Assembly: GCA_046539235.1 (NCBI GenBank) | Contig: JBKHHI010000018.1 | Coordinates: 6,561-30,560 of the forward strand | Direction: 5' to 3' | Length of the DNA: 24,000 bases | Origin: Coleofasciculus sp. | Lineage (GTDB): Bacteria > Cyanobacteriota > Cyanobacteriia > Cyanobacteriales > Coleofasciculaceae | Shown here: one piece after another, positions 5,864 to 18,116 of the stretch | How the letters are laid out: each line of letters opens with the position of its first letter | Position numbering within the stretch: position 1 is the first letter of the stretch | The notes under the pieces: model-generated | Told to the model about the DNA's origin: nothing | Seen by the model: the letters and a program-made list of their open reading frames with translations, nothing else | Databases searched by the model: none | Program-made: the position numbers and the translations under genes

Positions 5864-6190
5864 TCACTTCCAGGTTAGCGATCGCGAACTGATCCGTTTA
5901 CCCAATACCCGGCTGGGAAAACAAAGCAACTCCAGCCAAATCAGTTTCAGGTAAAACGCCTGTCTGTATTGGGCAAACAGTCGAATTTTCTGCCATAAAA
6001 GCAATAATTGCAGTTTCAGCCGCACGGTGAATTCCCTGGTTAACATGACTCTGGTGTTGTTGTCGTAATTACCGATGATTACCGTTTTACCGCAAAAAAT
6101 GCCTCGGCGCGATCGCAAAAACGCCAATCGCCCCAATCGATTCATGCGATAATGCACAGGATACCCGGTGGACTTGCACTCCCAATCATG
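5864..6190 (-). pseudogene. Probable decayed gene remnant split over three reading frames; family not recognised
   Basis: On the minus strand, protein-like segments appear in different frames (…LSHESIGAIGVFAIAPRHF… / …GKTVIIGNYDNNT… / …HVNQGIHRAAETAIIAFMAENSTVCPIQTGVLPETDLAGVALFSQPGIG*). The single 97-aa ORF in the track has an implausible composition. Confidence 0.3.
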
Positions 6191-6194
6191 ACTT

Positions 6195-6854
6195 ATGCTC
6201 AGACAACTTGGTTTTTGGATACTCTGGGTTGGCTTTCTCGCTTATGCCTTTCTGTTTGCGCCTCCCCAGCAACCTGATACCTTTGACCTGATTACCAATC
6301 TTTCCACAGGCAACTGGGATGGGATTAATCCCTTAATTATTGCCCTATTCAACATCATGGGCATTCTACCGCTAGCATACGCCTGCTTCGTGTTTATCGA
6401 TGGACGGGGACAGAAAATTCCCGCTTGGCTGTTTGCTACCGTCTCCTTTGGTGTGGGGGCGTTTGCGTTACTCCCCTATCTTGCTTTACGTCAACCGAAT
6501 CCTGAATTTCCTGGCTCAAAAAATATTTTCCTGGGTATTCTCGATTCCCGTTGGTTAGGTGTTGTTCTCACCCTCGGCACCTTGGTATTACTAGGATTTG
6601 GCATCCTCAACGGCGATTGGGCAAACTTTATCCAGCAGTGGCAAACCAGCCGTTTTATCCATGTGATGAGTTTGGACTTTTGCCTATTGTGCTTGCTTTT
6701 CCCGGCACTGGTGGGTGATGATATGGCACGACGCGGCTGGAACAATCCCACCCTATTTTGGGCAGTTGCACTGATACCGTTAATTGGTTCGCTAGTCTAT
6801 CTGTGTCTGCGCCCTCCTCTTCCAGACACCGAGGAAGCCATGGCAACCGCGTGA
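6195..6854 (+). CDS. Multi-pass integral membrane protein of unknown function
   Basis: 219-aa ORF with an ATG start and about 6 hydrophobic segments (FWILWVGFLAYAFLF, IIALFNIMGILPLAYACFVFI, etc.). No catalytic motif recognised. Confidence 0.7.
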   Translation: MLRQLGFWILWVGFLAYAFLFAPPQQPDTFDLITNLSTGNWDGINPLIIALFNIMGILPLAYACFVFIDGRGQKIPAWLFATVSFGVGAFALLPYLALRQPNPEFPGSKNIFLGILDSRWLGVVLTLGTLVLLGFGILNGDWANFIQQWQTSRFIHVMSLDFCLLCLLFPALVGDDMARRGWNNPTLFWAVALIPLIGSLVYLCLRPPLPDTEEAMATA

Positions 6855-6883
6855 AGGTTGGCAAAACCCTTGATATACCGTAG

Positions 6884-6900
6884 GGTGGGCATTGCCCACC
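6884..6900. repeat. Short GC hairpin GGTGGGC-att-GCCCACC (common cyanobacterial dispersed palindrome); possible terminator for 6195..6854
   Basis: 7-bp perfect stem, 30 nt downstream of the stop codon. Confidence 0.5.
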
Positions 6901-6940
6901 AGCATACCAGTTAGTACCATTCATCTTAATGGACTTGAGC

Positions 6941-7155
6941 TAAGTAGTCGGACTGGCATAAAACGGTAGTATTAAATGCAAGTAAATCGCCCTCAAACCC
7001 TTACTGTTCCCTGTTCCCTGTTAAGAGTTCCCTAATCTCAACCGTTAACTTTAATTGTGTCCACCTACTTACATCTGTTATAGCGACAGCCATAACTCAA
7101 AAATTGATAAACTTTAACCGATTCTCAGCAAAAACTAATTCAACCCCAGTTTAAT
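6941..7155 (+). other. arsM upstream module, copy 1: block A TAAGTAGTCGGAC (6941-6953), block B CCCTCAAACCCTTAC (6990-7004), block C GATTCTCAGCAAAAACTnATTnAACnnnnGTTTAAT (7120-7155)
   Basis: The same three blocks occur in the same order and orientation upstream of arsS (16862-17017). An imperfect inverted copy of block A (GTCCACCTACTTA) lies near 7059-7071. Confidence 0.7.
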
Positions 7156-7203
7156 ACTCTTAGAGAAAGAATGCTGACAGCATAAATCGTCATCGAGTCA
7201 ACT

Positions 7204-7238
7204 ATGACCAATGACATAAGACCAATGACAAACAACAA
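7204..7238. repeat. Degenerate heptamer tract (ATGACCA ATGACAT AAGACCA ATGACAA ACAACAA) immediately upstream of the arsM start
   Basis: Read directly. Related to the TGACCAA/TGACAAA tracts elsewhere in the window. Confidence 0.8.
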
Positions 7239-7243
7239 ACACT

Positions 7244-8206
7244 ATGACGTATCTAGAAACAACCGCAGAATTCTACAGTGAAGTCGCCCAAACCCCGCAA
7301 GTGGGGTTATGTTGTGTGCAGAGTTCTCCCCTGCAACTCCCCGGACTGAAAATCCCCCAACAAATGCAGGAAATGAACTATGGTTGTGGAACCACCGTTC
7401 ATCCGGCGGAACTGATAAACGAGCCAACGGTACTCTATTTGGGCGTGGGTGGTGGTTTAGAAGCCCTGCAATTTGCCTATTTCTCCCGACGTCCGGGTCG
7501 GGTTATTGCCGTTGATCCCGTCAAGGCGATGCGGGAAGCGGCGACACGTAACCTAGAAAGCGCAGCTCAAGATAATCCTTGGTTTAACCCTAGCTTTATC
7601 GACATTCGTGAAGGCGATGCCTTTGACCTACCTGTACCCGATGCTTCGGTTGATGTTGTCGCTCAAAATTGTCTATTTAATATCTTTGAACCCGAAGACC
7701 TAACTAAAGCCTTGCAAGAAGCCTATCGGGTGTTAAAAATTGGCGGACGCTTGATTATGAGTGACCCCATCGCCACCCGTCCGATTCCTGAGCATTTACG
7801 CCAAGATGAACGGTTACGGGCAATGTGCTTATCGGGTGCTTTAACATACAACGAGTATATTCAACATTTGGTTCATGTTGGGTTTGGTCAAGTCGAAATC
7901 CGGGCGCGGCGCCCTTATCGGTTGTTGGATTGTCAAAGTTACAAGTTAGATGAGCCGTTGCTGCTGGAAAGTTTAGATTCTGTGGCATTCAAAGTGCCGA
8001 TTCCGGAAGATGGTGCTTGCATTTTCACCGGAAAAACGGCGATTTACAGTGGAAGCCAAGAGGTTTTTGATGATAACGCGGGTCATGTTCTGCAAAAAGG
8101 TGTTCCGGCGTCGGTGTGTGATAAAACAGCCGCTAACTTGGCGATGTCAAAAGATATCATGATTACTGATTCCACCTGGTACTATACTGGCGGTGGTTGC
8201 TGTTAA
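7244..8206 (+). CDS. arsM: Arsenite S-adenosylmethionine methyltransferase ArsM (cyanobacterial, arsenosugar-associated type)
   Basis: 320-aa ORF with an ATG start. SAM motif I VLYLGVGGG. Cysteines at C23/C24 (GLCC), C48 (YGCG), C143 (QNCLFN) and C195 (MCLSGAL) are spaced like the four conserved ArsM cysteines. The C-terminus ends GGGCC. Confidence 0.85.
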   Translation: MTYLETTAEFYSEVAQTPQVGLCCVQSSPLQLPGLKIPQQMQEMNYGCGTTVHPAELINEPTVLYLGVGGGLEALQFAYFSRRPGRVIAVDPVKAMREAATRNLESAAQDNPWFNPSFIDIREGDAFDLPVPDASVDVVAQNCLFNIFEPEDLTKALQEAYRVLKIGGRLIMSDPIATRPIPEHLRQDERLRAMCLSGALTYNEYIQHLVHVGFGQVEIRARRPYRLLDCQSYKLDEPLLLESLDSVAFKVPIPEDGACIFTGKTAIYSGSQEVFDDNAGHVLQKGVPASVCDKTAANLAMSKDIMITDSTWYYTGGGCC

Positions 8207-9440: not shown

Positions 9441-9456
9441 TTCAAGAAAAGTTGAT
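9441..9456. promoter_or_regulatory. Inverted repeat TTCAA-GAAAAG-TTGAT overlapping the arsR start codon; candidate ArsR operator
   Basis: Read directly. It lies downstream of a TACAAT -10-like hexamer at 9424-9429. The same (A/T)TCAA-N6-TTGAT motif occurs at 9961-9976 and 16847-16862. Confidence 0.45.
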
Positions 9457-9781
9457 GCAAAGCACCGCCTCCCCGACCAATCTGAGTCTGATTACCTCCA
9501 GCTTCCATGCTTTATCTGACCCGATTCGGATCAAACTACTGGAACTGTTGCGAGAACAGGAACTGTGTGTGTGTGAACTCTGCGAAGTGCTGGAAGTGAG
9601 TCAGTCGAAGTTATCGTTTCACTTGAAAACTCTCAAAGAAGCTAGCTTGGTTCGCGCCCGTCAGGAAGGGCGTTGGGTTTATTACAGCCTGAATTTGCCT
9701 CAATTTGTGCTGTTAGAACAATATTTGGCAGAATACCGCCGCTTTAGCCCCATTTTATCGGGTCGTCCCTGTTCGGATTAA
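9455..9781 (+). CDS. arsR: ArsR/SmtB-family arsenite-responsive repressor
   Basis: Has the ELCVCELC motif (the CVC-x2-C As(III) site of R773-type ArsR) followed by the HTH VSQSKLSFHLKTLKEASLV and RQEGRWVYYSL. The track start at 9452 is TTG; the ATG at 9455 is preferred. Confidence 0.9.
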   Translation: MQSTASPTNLSLITSSFHALSDPIRIKLLELLREQELCVCELCEVLEVSQSKLSFHLKTLKEASLVRARQEGRWVYYSLNLPQFVLLEQYLAEYRRFSPILSGRPCSD

Positions 9782-9953
9782 TACCTGGGGTTCAAGGGCG
9801 TAGGGGTGTTCCAGACGTAGCATGGCGCATCTCTACAATTGTCCGATATCAACTTTTTTTGGAGTATCGCTATAATCAGCCTTATGCCCTCTGTCTCCTG
9901 CCTCTGGAGTCTTGGCTACTGCTCTACATCGCCTCAATCGTGGATATAAGGGC

Positions 9954-9976
9954 TTGACAAATCAAGTTTTTTTGAT
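9954..9976 (+). promoter_or_regulatory. Candidate ars operon promoter: -35 TTGACA (9954-9959) followed by inverted repeat ATCAA-GTTTTT-TTGAT (9961-9976)
   Basis: Read directly, 44-66 nt upstream of the pstS-like ATG. The -10 element is weak (TACGTT at 9976-9981). Confidence 0.5.
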
Positions 9977-10019
9977 ACGTTAAAAGTAATCCCATAGTTC
10001 TAGAAGGGGGTCGAGTTCA

Positions 10020-11048
10020 ATGAAGGTTATCCCCAGACCACAAATCCTGCCATGGACAAAACTGGCGCTAATCGCCACGGCTACGGCACTCTTGGGTGCC
10101 TGTTCCCAAGTTCAGTCGCAGTCGCCCCAACCGATTGAAATCGATGGTTCGAGTACGGTGTATCCGATTACCAAGACTGTTGCTGAGGCATTTACAGCCA
10201 CGACAAAAGCGCCCGTCAATGTCAGCGTGGGCTTTTCGGGTACAGGAGGTGGGTTTAAAAAATTCTGTTCCAGTGAAATCGATATTAATGGTGCCTCTCG
10301 CCCGATTCAAGCCGATGAGATGGCAGCCTGCAAACGATTCGGGGTGGCTTACATTGAACTCCCCGTTGCCTTTGATGCGATTACTGTCGTGGTGAATCCC
10401 GAAAATGATTGGGTAGACAGTCTCACGGTGGCAGAGTTGAAAAAAATCTGGGCACCCGAAGCCCAACGCCAAATCACTCAATGGAATCAAGTCCTGGAGT
10501 CTTTTCCCCAGAAACCTTTAAATTTATATGGTCCGGGGACAGATTCTGGCACCTTTGATTATTTTACCGAAGCCATCGTCGGTGAAGCGGGGTCGAGTCG
10601 TAGCGATTATATCGCCAGTGAGGATGATGAAATCCTGGCACAGGGGGTGAATCGAGACCCAAATGCTTTGGGCTATTTTGGCTTAGCCTATTACGAAACC
10701 AATCAAGATACATTAAAAGCGATCGCGGTTGATAGTGGCAAGGGGGCTGTCTTGCCCTCACGTCAAACCGTTGAGAATGCAACCTATCAACCCTTAACTC
10801 GACCGTTGTTTATCTACGTTAACGGGGCGGCTGCCCAGAGAAACCCAGCGTTACGAGAATTTGTGGCGTTTTACCTGGAGAATGCCCCAGTAATCGTCAG
10901 TTCGGTTGGCTATGTGCCGCTACCAGAGGAGGGGTATCACCTAGCTAACGTGCATTTCTTTCAAAACAAGGTAGGCACTGTCTTTGACGGTCAAGCTGAA
11001 TTTAATCTCACTATCGGTGAGTTGTTACGCAAACAGAAAAAGTTTTAA
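10020..11048 (+). CDS. PstS/SphX-family periplasmic phosphate-binding lipoprotein (orphan; no pstCAB in the window)
   Basis: 342-aa ORF. Lipobox LLGAC at residues 24-28. [25 protein letters not shown] and [14 protein letters not shown] are typical of the PBP-like-2 phosphate binders. Confidence 0.8.
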
Positions 11049-11078
11049 CTATTAGCGGTTGCAGTTTGATTCATTCCT

Positions 11079-12230
11079 ATGAGTACTAATTCATCTAACG
11101 CCACACCATCACCACCCCAAGTTGGGGGTCAACTTAGTTTCTTTGAAAAATATCTCACCGTTTGGGTAGTACTCTGCATCCTTGCAGGTATCGCCCTGGG
11201 TAAATTATTTCCCGGTGTGGCAGTGACACTGGATGCCATGAGTGTTTATCAGGTATCCATTCCTATCGCCATCTGCCTGTTTTTCATGATGTATCCGATT
11301 ATGGTGAAAATTGATTTCACCCAAGCAACTCAGGCAGTGCGGGCGCCGAAACCGGTGATTTTAACCATGGTGGTGAATTGGTTAATTAAACCCTTCACGA
11401 TGGTGGTTTTTGCCCAGTTTTTCCTGGGTTGGTTGTTTCAGCCTTTGCTATCGCAAACGGAGATCATTCGTGGGGCGGAAGTTACCTTGGCAAATTCTTA
11501 CATCGCTGGGGCAATTTTATTAGGCATTGCCCCTTGTACGGCGATGGTTTTGATGTGGGGGTATCTGTCTTACAGTAATCAAGGACATACCTTGGTGATG
11601 GTGGCGGTGAATTCGTTGGTTATGTTGTTTCTGTATGCTCCCTTAGGACGATGGTTATTAGCGGCGAATAATTTAACTGTACCCTGGCAAACCATTGTGT
11701 TATCGGTACTGATTTATGTGGGGTTGCCGTTAGCGGCGGGGATGTATAGTCGGTATTGGATTTTTAAACATAAGGGAAAAGAGTGGTTTGAACGGCGATT
11801 TATTAAGTATCTGAGTCCGATTTCGATTGCGGCGCTTTTAATTACGTTGGTTCTTTTGTTTGCGTTTAAGGGAGAACTGATTATTAATAACCCGCTACAT
11901 ATTTTGCTGATTGCTGTACCGTTGTTTATTCAGACAAATTTTATTTTCTTGATCACTTATGTGGCGGCGTTGAAGTTGAATTTGACCTATGAAGATGCTG
12001 CACCTGCGGCGTTAATTGGGGCGAGTAATCATTTTGAGGTGGCGATTGCCACGGCGGTGATGCTGTTTGGGTTGAATTCGGGGGCGGCGTTGGCGACGGT
12101 TGTCGGGGTGTTAATTGAAGTTCCTGTGATGTTGATGTTGGTGGAGTTTTGTAAGCGCACAGCGATGTGGTTTCCACGGGAACCGGAGAAGGCAACATTG
12201 CGTGATCCGCGTTGTGTTAACCCTTACTAA
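11079..12230 (+). CDS. acr3: ACR3-family arsenite efflux permease
   Basis: 383-aa ORF, polytopic. N-terminal [23 protein letters not shown] and the APCTAMV segment are characteristic of Acr3. Starts 30 nt after the PstS-like stop. Confidence 0.9.
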
Positions 12231-12331
12231 TCATTCTCTTTGTCATTCTTTATCCCCATAACAAATGATCCGAGCTAATAACAGACTTCCCTTTTCCTTA
12301 AACTCACCATCCTTGATCCTGTTATTGACCC

Positions 12332-12739
12332 ATGAAAAGAGTAATTTTTGTCTGTCAAAAAAACTCTTGCCGTTCCCAAATGGCAGAAGGGTTTGCTCGC
12401 TTTTTAGATGAAAATCGGAAATTTTCCTTCGCCAGTGCTGGACTGGAAGCGAGTCAGGTTCATCCACTGGCGATTCAGGTTATGGCTGAGGTGGGTATTG
12501 ATATTAGTCAGCACCAGTCTAAACTGTTGAGTGATTTCAATGCTGAAGACTTTCCGGCTGTGATATCGATGTGTGACTGTGGTAAAGATTTACCGGAGGA
12601 GTGGTTGATAAAGGAAACTTTCTACGAGTGGCGATTAGATGATCCCCATGATGAACCGATAGAGGTATTTCGCCAAGTTCGCGATGAAGTGGAAAGACAG
12701 GTCAAAGCTTTATTGTTATTGCTGAATATTAAGGGATAG
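12332..12739 (+). CDS. arsC: Arsenate reductase ArsC, LMW-PTPase fold, Synechocystis hybrid type (paralogue 1)
   Basis: P-loop C8-X5-R (VCQKNSCRS) and a CxC pair (MCDCG, C81/C83). Confidence 0.88.
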   Translation: MKRVIFVCQKNSCRSQMAEGFARFLDENRKFSFASAGLEASQVHPLAIQVMAEVGIDISQHQSKLLSDFNAEDFPAVISMCDCGKDLPEEWLIKETFYEWRLDDPHDEPIEVFRQVRDEVERQVKALLLLLNIKG

Positions 12740-12833
12740 ACAGGAATAGCGGTGATTTTTTGAACTTAGTTTCGGCTAATGCCTCAAAGATTAGATTGTA
12801 GTAAACCAACGAAAATTAGTAGTCAGGATTACC

Positions 12834-13229
12834 ATGAAACAAGTTATGTTTGTCTGCAAAAAAAACTCCTGTCGTTCCCAAATGGCAGAAGGATTTGCTC
12901 GCACGTTAGGAGAGGGAAAAGTTGCGGTGACGAGTTCGGGGTTGGAGGCGTCTGAAGTGAATCCTACGGCGGTTGAGGTGATGTCGGAAATTGGGATTGA
13001 TATTAGTGACCAAACGTCTAAGCCGTTAAGTGATTTTAATCCTGATGATTATAATGCAGTGATTTCTTTGTGTGGCTGTGGGGTTAATTTGCCTGAACCT
13101 TGGATATTGCGGGAGGTGTTTCAGGATTGGCAATTGGATGATCCGGCGGGTGAACCGATTGAGACGTTTCGGCGAGTACGAGATGAGATTAAAGAGCGAG
13201 TTGTTAAGTTAATTGATGCATTGGGTTAA
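12834..13229 (+). CDS. arsC: Arsenate reductase ArsC, LMW-PTPase fold, Synechocystis hybrid type (paralogue 2)
   Basis: VCKKNSCRS P-loop (C8) and LCGCG (C80/C82), the catalytic cysteine pattern known for Synechocystis ArsC. AGGA sits 7 nt upstream of the ATG. Confidence 0.9.
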   Translation: MKQVMFVCKKNSCRSQMAEGFARTLGEGKVAVTSSGLEASEVNPTAVEVMSEIGIDISDQTSKPLSDFNPDDYNAVISLCGCGVNLPEPWILREVFQDWQLDDPAGEPIETFRRVRDEIKERVVKLIDALG

Positions 13230-13516: not shown

Positions 13517-13568
13517 CCCTTCCCAACACGGGGAGGGACTTTTTGTGGCAATATTCTCTGACTAGGGG

Positions 13569-13600
13569 TTGACTTTATACCTAGGTATAAGGTTTATGAT
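13569..13600 (+). promoter_or_regulatory. MerR-type promoter: -35 TTGACT (13569-13574), 20-nt spacer containing the perfect 16-bp palindrome TTATACCTAGGTATAA (13575-13590), -10 TATGAT (13595-13600)
   Basis: All elements read directly. An over-long 19-20 nt spacer with a central dyad is the hallmark of MerR-family-activated promoters. Confidence 0.7.
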
Positions 13601-13619
13601 TAAGGCACTGGATTCTGAT

Positions 13620-14336
13620 ATGAGCTGGGGCAATATGCTTCAAGTTGGTGAAGTGGCGCGTAAGTTGGGACTTAATCCCCAAACCCTTTACTTTTACGAA
13701 CGGATTGGATTGATTCCGAGTCCGAAACGTACTGAGGCTGGATATCGCTTGTTTGATGACCAGGATATTGAACGGTTGTCCTTTATTAGTCGGGCGAAGG
13801 CGTTTGGTTTAAGCCTGGACGAAATTAAAGAATTACTGGTATTGCAAGATGGTAATTCTCTGTCTTGTGGTGAAGTTTATCAGATGTTGCTGAAAAAAAT
13901 TCAGCAAATTGAAGACAATATCCAGCAATTGCAACGGCTTCGAGCAGAATTATTACCTTTGCTCAATCGTTGTCAAGAAAATGCTCAACGGTTGGGTGAA
14001 GAACGCCAGTGTGTTGTCTTTAAGGATGTTGATTATAGCGGTGAAGACAAGGCTGGGTTTGATCATGATTCCAATTCTTATGAGGTTTTAAGTGTGGATA
14101 CGCTTACGGTAGAAATTCTGGGAACGGGTTGTAAAAAATGCCATCAATTAGAGGAAAATGCCCGAAGTGCGATCGCGTCTTTGGGTATTGCGGCTGAAGT
14201 CGTGCCAATTACTGACCCTGTGGAGATTGCTAAACGACGGGTTATGTCTACTCCAGCGTTAGCTGTGAATGGCAAAGTGGTGAGTAAAGGAAAGGTAATT
14301 TCCCCAGAACAAATTAAACCGTTGTTGCAGTCTTAA
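13620..14336 (+). CDS. MerR-family transcriptional regulator fused to a C-terminal CxxC thioredoxin-fold domain (Thioredoxin_3 / redox-active disulfide protein 2 type)
   Basis: N-terminal HTH VGEVARKLGLNPQTLYFYERIGLIPSPKRTEAGYRLF, a dimerisation helix, and Cys residues in SCGEV, NRC and RQC. The C-terminal 80 aa are EILGTGCKKCHQLEENARSAIASLGI...VMSTPALAVNGKVVSKGKV. The track start at 13569 (TTG) is the -35 hexamer, so the start was moved to ATG 13620 (alternative 13635). Confidence 0.8.
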   Translation: MSWGNMLQVGEVARKLGLNPQTLYFYERIGLIPSPKRTEAGYRLFDDQDIERLSFISRAKAFGLSLDEIKELLVLQDGNSLSCGEVYQMLLKKIQQIEDNIQQLQRLRAELLPLLNRCQENAQRLGEERQCVVFKDVDYSGEDKAGFDHDSNSYEVLSVDTLTVEILGTGCKKCHQLEENARSAIASLGIAAEVVPITDPVEIAKRRVMSTPALAVNGKVVSKGKVISPEQIKPLLQS

Positions 14337-14339
14337 GTT

Positions 14340-14380
14340 ATTCGTCATTTGTCATTTGTCATTTGTCATTCGTCATTTGC
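14340..14380. repeat. Heptamer tract ATTCGTC ATTTGTC x3 ATTCGTC ATTTGC (reverse complement of the GACGAAT/GACAAAT tract)
   Basis: Read directly, immediately after the MerR-Trx stop codon. Confidence 0.95.
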
Positions 14381-14420: not shown

Positions 14421-14724
14421 ATGGTTGATTTATTTTATCCATTTGATTGGTTAGCTAGCCAAATTGTAACTAAATTTTTGGGTTTATCATTGCATTCATC
14501 TCTGGGGTCAGCGCTTTTTCTACGATGTCCCCAAAGTTCTGACTCTATTAATTGTGATTAGTTTTATAGTGGGAACGGTGCAAACCTTTCTTGACCCGCA
14601 AAAGATTCGCTATTGGATTAGTGGCAAGCGGACGATTTTTGGCAATGGTTTAGCGGCAACGGTTGGTATCGTTACCCCTTTTTGTTCCTGTTCCGCCGTG
14701 CCGTTATTTATTGGCTTTAGTTGA
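14421..14724 (+). pseudogene. arsP: ArsP-type (COG0701/YraQ-like) permease pseudogene: +1 frameshift in a T5 run (14515-14519) and loss of roughly the C-terminal two thirds
   Basis: ATG at 14421 is preceded by AAGGA. Frame 0 gives MVDLFYPFDWLASQIVTKFLGLSLHSSLGSALF and then stops at 14559. Frame +1 continues FYDVPKVLTLLIVISFIVGTVQTFLDPQKIRYWISGKRTIFGNGLAATVGIVTPFCSCSAVPLFIGFS*, which includes the TPFCSCS vicinal-cysteine motif of ArsP-family permeases. Only about 100 codons remain. Confidence 0.75.
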
Positions 14725-14803: not shown

Positions 14804-15052
14804 GTTTCAATCCCTGATAGGGATTCAGGGGAATTCCAAGTATCAATCAGGCAGTTTCCAGTCTGATTGGTGCGTTTCAATCCCTGATAGGGATTCAGGG
14901 GAATTCCAAGCATTGATGCAATGATCGCCAAGTACGGGCTAACAGTTTCAATCCCTGATAGGGATTCAGGGGAATTCCAAGAAAATAATGGGGAAAGTAA
15001 TAATGGCTGGTAAGAGTTTCAATCCCTGATAGGGATTCAGGGGAATTCCAAG
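14804..15052 (-). CRISPR. Orphan CRISPR mini-array: 4 identical 37-nt repeats (plus strand GTTTCAATCCCTGATAGGGATTCAGGGGAATTCCAAG) and 3 spacers (33, 34, 34 nt)
   Basis: Repeats at 14804-14840, 14874-14910, 14945-14981 and 15016-15052. Spacers at 14841-14873, 14911-14944 and 14982-15015. The repeat has an internal 7-bp stem AATCCCT/AGGGATT. On the minus strand it ends ...CCCTATCAGGGATTGAAAC, the usual Cas6-type 3' handle, so minus-strand transcription with the leader at 15053 onward is inferred. No cas genes are in the window. Confidence 0.9.
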
Positions 15053-17120: not shown

Positions 17121-18116
17121 ATGACACAGACAGCCACATTAGCGGTAACCCCGTTTAGTCAAAAACTGAGGACACCTTTAACCAAAAATCAAATTACGGT
17201 TCTGCAAATCAATCTGGGAAAACGCTGTAATCTCGCCTGTACCCATTGCCATGTAGAAGCGGGACCTAAACGCACGGAAGAACTGACCCCGGAAATCTGT
17301 GACCAACTTATCGAACTGATTCATCGCTTCCCGCAAATCCAAACCGTTGATTTAACCGGGGGTGCGCCGGAAATGAATTATGGGTTTAAACCCTTAGTTG
17401 AAGCAGCGCGGGCAATGGGAAAGGAGGTGATTGTGCGGTCAAATTTGACAATTTTCTTTGAACCGGGATTCCAGGATTTGCCAGAATATTTTGCCCAACA
17501 TCAGGTGAGAGTTGTTGCCTCGCTTCCCTGCTATTTAGAGGATAATGTGGATAAAATGCGGGGGAAAGGAGTTTACAATGATTCGATTCGGGCAATTCAA
17601 CGGTTAAATCAATTGGGGTATGGAAAAAATCCGCAGTTAATCCTGGATTTGGTTTATAATCCAGCGTTGCCTGTGAGTGAAGATTTTTACTTAACGCCGA
17701 ATCAGGTGAAGTTGGAACAGGACTATAAACGGTTCCTTAAGGAAAATTTTGATATTGAGTTTAACCAGTTGTTCGCGATTACCAATTTACCCATTGGCAG
17801 AACCAAGTTTTATCTGCAACGAACCAAGCTGTATACACCGTATCTGAAGTTTCTGGAAGATAATTTTAATCCGACGACGGTGGAACATTTGATGTGTCGA
17901 AATGAACTCTCGATTGATTATCGAGGAAATGTTTACGACTGTGATTTTAATCAGATGGAAGAAATACCCGCTAAGTCTCGCACTGGGGAAACGTTAACCG
18001 TGGGTAAGCTATTAGCCGCAGGAAGCTTAGATATCATTGACGAAATTCGCACAGCTTCCTATTGTTACGGTTGCACCGCCGGGTGTGGTTCGAGTTGCGG
18101 TGGTGCTTTGACTTGA
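17121..18116 (+). CDS. arsS: Radical SAM / Cys-rich-domain protein ArsS (arsenosugar biosynthesis)
   Basis: 331-aa ORF. Radical SAM motif CNLACTHC (CX3CX2C) near the N-terminus, TGGAPEMN, and a C-terminal Cys-rich tail SYCYGCTAGCGSSCGG typical of this family. Confidence 0.85.
   Translation: MTQTATLAVTPFSQKLRTPLTKNQITVLQINLGKRCNLACTHCHVEAGPKRTEELTPEICDQLIELIHRFPQIQTVDLTGGAPEMNYGFKPLVEAARAMGKEVIVRSNLTIFFEPGFQDLPEYFAQHQVRVVASLPCYLEDNVDKMRGKGVYNDSIRAIQRLNQLGYGKNPQLILDLVYNPALPVSEDFYLTPNQVKLEQDYKRFLKENFDIEFNQLFAITNLPIGRTKFYLQRTKLYTPYLKFLEDNFNPTTVEHLMCRNELSIDYRGNVYDCDFNQMEEIPAKSRTGETLTVGKLLAAGSLDIIDEIRTASYCYGCTAGCGSSCGGALT

Follow-up and report, generated by a model that had tools for sequence, protein, structure and literature searches.

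Activators of the MerR family work by remodelling their promoters, and the hallmark of this type of activation is an operator dyad placed within an over-long spacer of 19-20 bp. To our knowledge, and judging from the literature searched, all bacterial regulators shown to control arsenic resistance are ArsR/SmtB repressors. The genes under such control encode, among others, proteins of the ArsP and ArsE families, which include members involved in organoarsenical resistance (bioRxiv 10.1101/2022.10.17.512643; PMC6205960), and an ArsR-ArsP-ArsE operon of P. mercurii is described as arsenic-induced (bioRxiv 10.1101/2022.10.17.512643). Here we analyze a gene in which a MerR-type regulator and an ArsE-type domain are joined in a single polypeptide. 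It is located in a stretch of 24,000 nucleotides (nt) from the cyanobacterium Coleofasciculus sp. (contig JBKHHI010000018.1), hereafter called the window, whose positions are used throughout. Sequence comparison established that the gene encodes a predicted effector-activated transcription factor of the MerR family, with a promoter dyad in an over-long 20-nt spacer. The best overall explanation of its role in Coleofasciculus, to which we give an even chance of being right, is that of an arsenical-responsive MerR-ArsE activator.

The promoter comprises, on the forward strand, a -35 hexamer TTGACT (13569..13574) and a -10 hexamer TATGAT (13595..13600) separated by a 20-nt spacer (13575-13594). 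The operator in the spacer is an imperfect 20-bp dyad (13573..13592) formed around the perfect 16-bp palindrome TTATACCTAGGTATAA at 13575-13590. An earlier reading of this DNA from its letters only (the sequence-only reading) had proposed the same arrangement, which the coordinates and the conservation of the element now confirm. The palindrome occurs only once in the window, where its statistics are weak (0.7 chance matches expected at two mismatches or fewer); the promoter and operator call is considered decisive because of conservation across species and not because of window statistics. The motif cTTGACcTTATAC-N4-GTATAAGGTnTAnnaT, together with the TTGAC of the -35 box, is found in 69 of the 85 distinct upstream regions of homologues, and the spacer measures exactly 20 nt in 68 of these 69. 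Across the clade the operator consensus is CCTTATAC-N4-GTATAAGG and the whole element reads TTGACc-TTATAC-N4-GTATAA-TAnnaT; the flanking sequences are not conserved. The promoter scanner cannot report 20-nt spacers and its output bears neither way on the promoter. A scan of the window for further operator copies, which could have delineated a regulon over the surrounding arsenic resistance (ars) island, returned none. Between the arsR-pstS-acr3-arsC-arsC unit of this island and the MerR-type promoter lies a terminator-like element on the forward strand, 3' of arsC (13517..13546), consisting of a hairpin (13517-13537) with an 8-pair stem including 6 G-C pairs and followed by the T-run ACTTTTTGTG. 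Additional operator-promoter copies were also observed in other loci of the comparison (L018 and L047 at 7404, L023 at 14839 and L026 at 2634). The extra copy of Anabaena precedes a gene for a 156-aa DSP/BLH-phosphatase-like protein (aa, amino acids) just before merR, and that of Leptolyngbya precedes the gene of a 320-aa Tat-signal CT0912-like/ABM-like protein; the genes behind these copies are possible further members of the regulon.

The coding sequence of the fusion protein, delimited by orthologue alignment, occupies positions 13635..14336 of the forward strand and corresponds to 233 codons plus a stop. The protein begins with MLQVGEV... at ATG 13635, a start shared by all orthologues. 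The list of open reading frames (ORFs) on which the sequence-only reading relied had started the gene at TTG 13569; this start was rejected since the triplet belongs to the -35 hexamer TTGACT and the orthologues start at the downstream ATG. An in-frame ATG at 13620 is also unlikely to be used, as the upstream ATG of sister genome L013 runs into an in-frame stop. A database entry recorded in Coleofasciculus sp. (P0001) is 100% identical to the protein, and the public name of the whole polypeptide, 'MTH895/ArsE family thioredoxin-like protein', ignores its MerR half. The possibility that the fusion is an assembly or frameshift artefact was rejected: it is present in 16 clusters from isolates and metagenome-assembled genomes (MAGs) of several genera, always in frame and with conserved cysteines.

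Two modules linked by a flexible segment are readily distinguished in this protein. The N-terminal MerR module (13635..14024, forward strand), delineated by Pfam, NCBIfam, a Protein Data Bank (PDB) match and an AlphaFold2 model, includes a winged helix-turn-helix (HTH), a long dimerisation helix and the sensor loop. It matches PF00376 (MerR, 3.7e-16), PF13411 (MerR_1, 8.6e-19) and PF09278 (MerR-DNA-bind, 2.5e-21), and its best PDB match is 4ua1, the MerR protein of Bacillus megaterium (1e-27), with PbrR and CadR next. The C-terminal Thioredoxin_3 or MTH895-ArsE domain (14106..14327, forward strand), supported by the same four types of evidence, matches PF13192 at 6.7e-25, exceeds the cut-off of the NCBIfam model TIGR00412 'MTH895/ArsE' (86.2 bits versus 62) and has 1ilo (MTH895) as its best PDB match (2e-12). 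The intervening linker (14025..14096, forward strand) of about 24 residues is predicted to be disordered, with a predicted local distance difference test score (pLDDT) below 50. AlphaFold2 returned two confident domains: a winged HTH with pLDDT above 90 over residues 10-70, extended by a predicted dimerisation helix of 43 residues (83-125 in a 238-aa numbering), and a beta-alpha-beta-alpha-beta-beta-alpha thioredoxin fold with pLDDT 85-91. Both the MerR HTH with its long helix and the CxxC Thioredoxin_3-type domain of 80 aa had been recognized in the sequence-only reading, and the domain scans and the structural model agree with it. No HTH_5 (ArsR/SmtB) domain was matched by Pfam in the fusion protein. 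On every criterion open to computational testing, it belongs to both the MerR and the ArsE/MTH895 families and is not an ArsR.

The MerR module carries three sensor cysteines, C78 (codon 13866-13868), C113 (13971-13973) and C126 (14010-14012), whose spacings of 35 and 13 residues had been correctly reported before. The corresponding sites of known mercury sensors are C79, C114 and C123 in B. megaterium MerR and C82, C117 and C126 in Tn501 MerR. C78 and C113 align exactly with C79 and C114 of 4ua1. The third cysteine, located at 121-126 across the clade and here only 5 residues before the linker, is 4 residues further out than in the mercury (Hg), lead and cadmium sensors. The thioredoxin domain contributes C166 (14130-14132) and C169 (14139-14141), all codons being on the forward strand; its CxxC motif is CKKC and its cis-Pro motif TPAL. 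Conservation of the cysteines among orthologues had been set beforehand as a test that could refute the proposal. The three sensor and two CxxC cysteines, together with CKKC and TPAL, proved invariant in the 16 fusion clusters (50-100% identity), and the triad was found clade-wide. Hundreds of stand-alone cyanobacterial MerR proteins (130-160 aa) show 57-77% identity to the N-terminal half and share its cysteines and their spacing; as judged from these alignments, the triad is a signature of the whole MerR clade and not of the fusion. Around 15 loci with the same operator (L062, L069-L091) form a Pseudanabaena sub-clade whose cysteine-rich C-terminus contains C78, C84, C113, C119, C122, C129 and C143. 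These loci are devoid of trx3 and arsP_1, the genes described below, and always carry a fatty-acid desaturase gene about 100-250 nt downstream.

In many cyanobacteria, the two halves of the protein are encoded separately in a widespread cassette of three genes: merR, a Thioredoxin_3 gene of 76-80 codons (trx3) and an ArsP_1 permease gene (arsP_1). A census of 80 species-representative loci detected merR together with trx3 in 56, as separate genes in 46 and fused in 10. Wherever the contig continues far enough, arsP_1 is downstream (53 of 53 such cassettes among the 56). About 12 further loci have no element upstream of merR and carry the same element between merR and trx3, directly before trx3-arsP_1, which points to trx3 and arsP_1 as the regulated genes. 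An unbiased Pfam census of 290 flanking ORFs revealed no further universally conserved neighbour. Two ArsP_1 subtypes, only about 25% identical to each other, are encountered in the same cassette (L001, L010, L002, L009 and others), one of about 330 aa with a TPFCSCS motif and one of about 438 aa with AVCSCT; all ars-island cassettes carry the short type.

The origin of the fusion can be read in its linker. The corresponding DNA keeps a Shine-Dalgarno-like GAGG (14082-14085) and, 8 nt further on, what used to be the start codon of trx3 (14094-14096), which is GTG in this window and ATG in sister Coleofasciculus genomes. It derives from the 3' end of the ancestral merR and the gap between merR and trx3, as its alignment with the unfused loci L079 and L058 shows. 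Because this relic ribosome-binding site and start codon align with the intergenic region of unfused genomes, the fusion is best described as a read-through joining of the first two adjacent genes of the operon, merR and trx3. At least two independent events are documented by phylogeny and linker comparison: the fusions of Phormidium/Oscillatoria and those of Coleofasciculus group apart, in clades that both have 100% bootstrap support, the latter are closest to the unfused L079 (62% bootstrap) and the linkers are unrelated between fusion lineages. L002 and L003 represent two further fusion lineages and suggest that the number of events could reach four, which the short alignment cannot prove. 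The MerR-thioredoxin combination remains rare, with 2-3 cluster representatives at 50% identity among 1.84 billion proteins. The sequence-only reading had seen in the protein a trigonal-thiolate-capable site and a redox CxxC domain set on a MerR scaffold. The comparison does not bear out a sensor purpose-built in this way: the fusion arose by read-through, the two genes are separate in 46 of 56 loci and the triad is clade-wide, including in members heading merF-merT operons.

The case for arsenic comes from the gene neighbourhoods. The cassette forms part of an ars island in the window and in six further assemblies of Coleofasciculus (L001, L012-L016); this island comprises arsM, arsR, pstS, acr3, arsC in one or two copies, the cassette itself and arsS. 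In addition, the cassette is ars-linked in Stenomitos (L079, pstS-acr3-arsC-glyoxalase-merR-trx3-arsP1), in a Thermosynechococcaceae MAG (L058, acr3-arsC-pstS-merR...), in Pantanalinema (L066), where arsR-gapdh-MFS stands alongside, and in L035 with a divergent arsH (7e-115). More direct are merR-acr3-arsC operons that open with a member of this clade, found in Acaryochloris marina, A. thomasi, another Acaryochloris MAG and a Thermosynechococcaceae MAG (L061 2634-4663; L092, L093 and L094 5001-7054). These four operons have the same operator and the same Cys triad in three unrelated sets of flanking genes, no ArsR gene was found within 5 kb of any of them, and the stop codon of merR overlaps the start of acr3 in L094. 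Given that a genome of 5-9 Mb has one or two ars clusters, chance placement would be expected to produce well under one ars linkage among about 65 lineages. The proposal of a MerR-class arsenic sensor has thereby gained comparative support, mainly from relatives (the four merR-acr3-arsC operons and five other ars-linked lineages), the fusion itself being mostly not ars-linked; in other words, arsenic sensing is better backed by the relatives' operons than by the fusion protein. The expected association of orthologues with ars or ArsP genes held for arsP_1, present downstream wherever the contig continues; for the ars island it held, among the fusion lineages examined, only in Coleofasciculus.

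The effector cannot be picked from sequence models alone, as the ZntR, MerR, CadR and CueR models all score the fusion at about 100 bits, each under its own cut-off. The main alternative keeps the same architecture and promoter mechanism, with Hg(II) or another soft divalent metal (Cd, Pb, Zn, Cu) as the effector. The trx3-arsP_1 pair would then be the functional counterpart of merP-merT/merF, a small CxxC protein and a vicinal-cysteine membrane protein moving metal, and the position in the ars island would reflect the mere clustering of toxic-element genes. Several observations favour this alternative or weigh against an arsenical. Among fusion lineages examined, Coleofasciculus is the only one within an ars island; no ars gene lies within 8-10 kb in five of about six fusion lineages, nor in most separate-gene cassettes, so that the majority of cassettes are not near ars genes. 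Coleofasciculus, L079 and Acaryochloris came together as a single 'arsenic' sub-clade in only 6.5% of bootstrap replicates. The island already encodes a canonical ArsR (9452-9781) with an HTH_5 match and an ELCVCELC motif. Full-length ArsP_1 proteins fall under the cut-offs of both curated subfamilies, and the SO_0444 Cu/Zn efflux model is just as near to them. The best solved relative of the MerR half is a Hg sensor, 4ua1, followed by PbrR and CadR, and the closest non-cyanobacterial relatives, at 42-44% identity, are Hg-MerR1 proteins of Firmicutes, whose merR1 genes are also the nearest plasmid-borne relatives. A cysteine equivalent to position 79 reportedly marks MerR proteins sensing +2 ions, and the fusion has a cysteine at this position. 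In Gloeomargaritales and in an Elainellaceae MAG, members of the same MerR clade with the same operator head merR(-merF)-merT/HMA-zf_CopZ operons (L011/L043 of Gloeomargaritales, 6001-7721; L042; L087), and the cassette of Thermosynechococcus (L009) reads merR-trx3-arsP_1-zf_CopZ, so that the genes in the middle look exchangeable. As an observation apart, the products encoded by the operons of L011/L042/L043 and L087 are MerF, which is joined to MerR in VI4D9, MerT-HMA and a putative iron-sulfur metallochaperone of the zf_CopZ type. Finally, Slr0701 of Synechocystis, compared by its description only, was published as a Hg-responsive autoregulator (PMC6741143). This protein was not among the closest 120 relatives in three protein searches and may lie outside the clade; two exact primer-derived DNA searches of metagenomes for it gave no match.

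Against a sensor restricted to mercury, the merR-acr3-arsC operons of four genomes would make no sense. The roughly six independent ars linkages, compared with two or three mer linkages, are far above random placement. The fusion also scores 101.7 bits with the Hg-MerR equivalog model TIGR02051, well short of its cut-off of 150.85, and the outward shift of the third cysteine implies a binding loop different from that of the Hg, Pb and Cd sensors. Our reading of these data is that soft, thiol-seeking elements are what the clade responds to, with diversification among its members. As the effector of the Coleofasciculus fusion, we give arsenicals even chances, ahead of Hg or another soft metal, a less likely alternative that nevertheless deserves serious consideration. 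A switch responding to disulfide or electrophile stress was also envisaged, in which the sensor cysteines are oxidised and reset by the tethered thioredoxin, no metal or metalloid being sensed. The third sensor cysteine does lie no more than about 25 residues from the tethered CxxC thioredoxin fold, and some MerR proteins (NmlR, SoxR) sense redox or electrophiles; yet both models match the fusion more weakly (57 bits for NmlR and 49 for SoxR) than the metal-sensor models at about 100 bits, and the three-cysteine geometry fits the metal sites of MerR, PbrR and CadR. Since, moreover, the thioredoxin protein is mostly a separate gene product paired with the permease and the recurrent neighbours are arsenic and mercury genes instead of oxidative-stress genes, we hold such a switch to be very improbable.

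Another explanation concerns this strain in particular. Its arsP_1 gene is a remnant (14421..14718, forward strand), identified by a Pfam ArsP_1 match (1.6e-11) and by tblastn and blastn comparison with L001 and L012-L015. Residues 1-32 and 35-102 are in different frames, the shift occurring near 14516, and the segment 103-331 has been lost; the C-S-C motif is kept in the remnant as in intact orthologues. Five sister genomes, that of PCC 7420 and four more from Coleofasciculus, have an undamaged copy. The sequence-only reading had placed the regulator directly upstream of an arsP-type gene inside an ars island; position and island were borne out, the target being a pseudogene here. Because arsP_1 is truncated, the autoregulated fusion protein would be all that remains of the cassette in this strain. 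The deletion abuts a mini array of clustered regularly interspaced short palindromic repeats (CRISPR) located in the ars island directly after the truncated gene (14804-15052, minus strand according to Rfam; CRISPR-DR5, 41.8 bits for a gathering score of 40), with four copies of the 37-nt repeat GTTTCAATCCCTGATAGGGATTCAGGGGAATTCCAAG at a spacing of 70-71 nt; the homologous array of C. chthonoplastes PCC 7420 (L001 12336-13074) has about 10 repeats. The locus could on these grounds be decaying, the target permease having been deleted and the fusion gene being a leftover with no current role, irrespective of the effector of its ancestor; the array is also shorter than that of PCC 7420. The fusion ORF, the promoter and all five cysteines are, on the contrary, intact, the fusion is 89-95% identical to that of sister genomes with an intact arsP_1, and the loss, seen on one contig, may be genuine or may stem from the assembly having collapsed at the CRISPR repeats. 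Decay thus seems to us an improbable account of the gene.

Returning to the arsenical-responsive activator, a mechanism can be sketched by analogy with the MerR family. A dimer of the fusion protein would occupy the dyad and hold a soft, thiol-seeking ligand between Cys78 of one subunit and Cys113 and Cys126 of the other; ligand binding would twist the promoter into a form usable by RNA polymerase. The induced genes would be that of the regulator/ArsE fusion itself and, in intact genomes, that of the ArsP_1 permease. On the evidence of the gene neighbourhoods, a trivalent arsenical would be the most likely ligand in Coleofasciculus, the candidates being As(III) and methyl or aromatic arsenicals. 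Tethered to the sensor, the ArsE domain would act in the pathway of the permease, and it may in addition pass the arsenical on, take it off the sensor thiols or re-reduce these. That the fusion is recurrent and independent suggests that sensor and ArsE work together or interact, and ligand hand-over and re-reduction of the sensor thiols would be the obvious candidate roles of ArsE. Covalent linkage may mainly enforce a 1:1 stoichiometry and the proximity of the domain to the third sensor cysteine. Free ArsE could possibly also be made from the retained internal ribosome-binding site and start codon. The canonical ArsR of the island probably handles As(III) for acr3-arsC, and organoarsenicals could therefore be what the MerR system is tuned to, a speculation fitting the published roles of ArsP and ArsE.

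A bolder version of this proposal is that the clade constitutes the first MerR-family sensors of trivalent arsenicals, replacing ArsR over acr3-arsC or arsE-arsP, and that ArsE acts directly on the sensor thiolate site as a chaperone-to-sensor relay which loads, unloads or re-reduces it. We advance it tentatively, considering it somewhat more apt to fail than to hold. No paper describing a MerR-type arsenic regulator or a merR-trx3-arsP_1 cassette was found in the literature searched, in agreement with the novelty anticipated for such a sensor. If correct, a MerR-type activator would represent a second and mechanistically opposite class of bacterial arsenic regulator and would provide a positive-acting, tightly off and arsenical-inducible promoter, possibly useful for biosensors. 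The recurrent fusion of a sensor to ArsE is in addition a 'Rosetta stone' hint to the obscure biochemical role of ArsE/MTH895 proteins. Even if mercury were the effector, a conserved and unstudied cyanobacterial cassette, merR-trx3-arsP_1, would have been defined along with its operator and extra regulon members, and the database name overlooking the regulator half is corrected.

Other features of the locus complete this description. The ars genes of the window (7244-8206, 9452-13229 and 17121-18116) include arsenosugar-type arsM and arsS, assigned at the NCBIfam equivalog level, with arsR-pstS-acr3 and arsC genes. The arsC genes form a tandem pair of the glutaredoxin type, with 60% identity between the two, and PCC 7420 has one arsC at this place. 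Between the stop codon of the fusion gene and the arsP_1 start, a heptanucleotide (ATTTGTC) is tandemly repeated 5.7 times (14340-14379), much like the short tandemly repeated repetitive (STRR) sequences found in filamentous cyanobacteria; across Coleofasciculus genomes, the length of this intergenic region ranges between about 70 and 400 nt.

Among known systems, the closest is Hg-MerR as characterized in Tn501 and B. megaterium (PDB 4ua1/5crl), which shares the HTH, the long antiparallel dimerisation helix, a three-cysteine site whose first two cysteines align and the promoter logic of a dyad within an over-long spacer of 19-20 bp; in Gram-positive mer operons, merR is likewise the first gene. 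The fusion differs from it by an identity of only about 42-44%, under the MerR equivalog cut-off, and by a third cysteine placed 13 residues after the second instead of 9. The operator of the clade is TTATAC-N4-GTATAA, whereas that of Tn501 is TCCGTAC-N4-GTACGGA. The downstream genes are trx3-arsP_1, or acr3-arsC in relatives, and not merTPA, and a C-terminal thioredoxin domain has been added. Slr0701 of Synechocystis PCC 6803 is also a cyanobacterial MerR-type autoregulator, and the inverted repeat to which it binds is reportedly conserved in front of its homologues in cyanobacteria (PMC6741143); one source names clade member P0176 after it. Going by its description only, Slr0701 differs in responding experimentally to HgCl2 and in controlling a distant merA, and no trx3/arsP_1 partner is described for it (PMC6741143).

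ArsR/SmtB repressors of the R773 ArsR type are functional analogues, with an As(III) thiolate site controlling acr3, arsC and arsP, and they are also the regulators of the ArsP-ArsE pair in other phyla. Their fold is unrelated (winged-helix HTH_5) and they operate by derepression, not by promoter-remodelling activation. The C-terminal domain resembles ArsE/MTH895 proteins (TIGR00412, PF13192) in scoring over the family cut-off, in its CxxC and cis-Pro motifs and in its ArsP_1 partner; it differs from them in being covalently joined to its own regulator. The addition of a pathway-related C-terminal domain to a MerR core has parallels in CoaR, which carries a CbiC-like domain and was seen in L002, in MerR-MerF (P0079) and in MerR-HMA (P0225), the latter two also looking like fusions with a downstream operon gene. 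What sets the Coleofasciculus protein apart from all three is the nature of the domain acquired, a thioredoxin fold.

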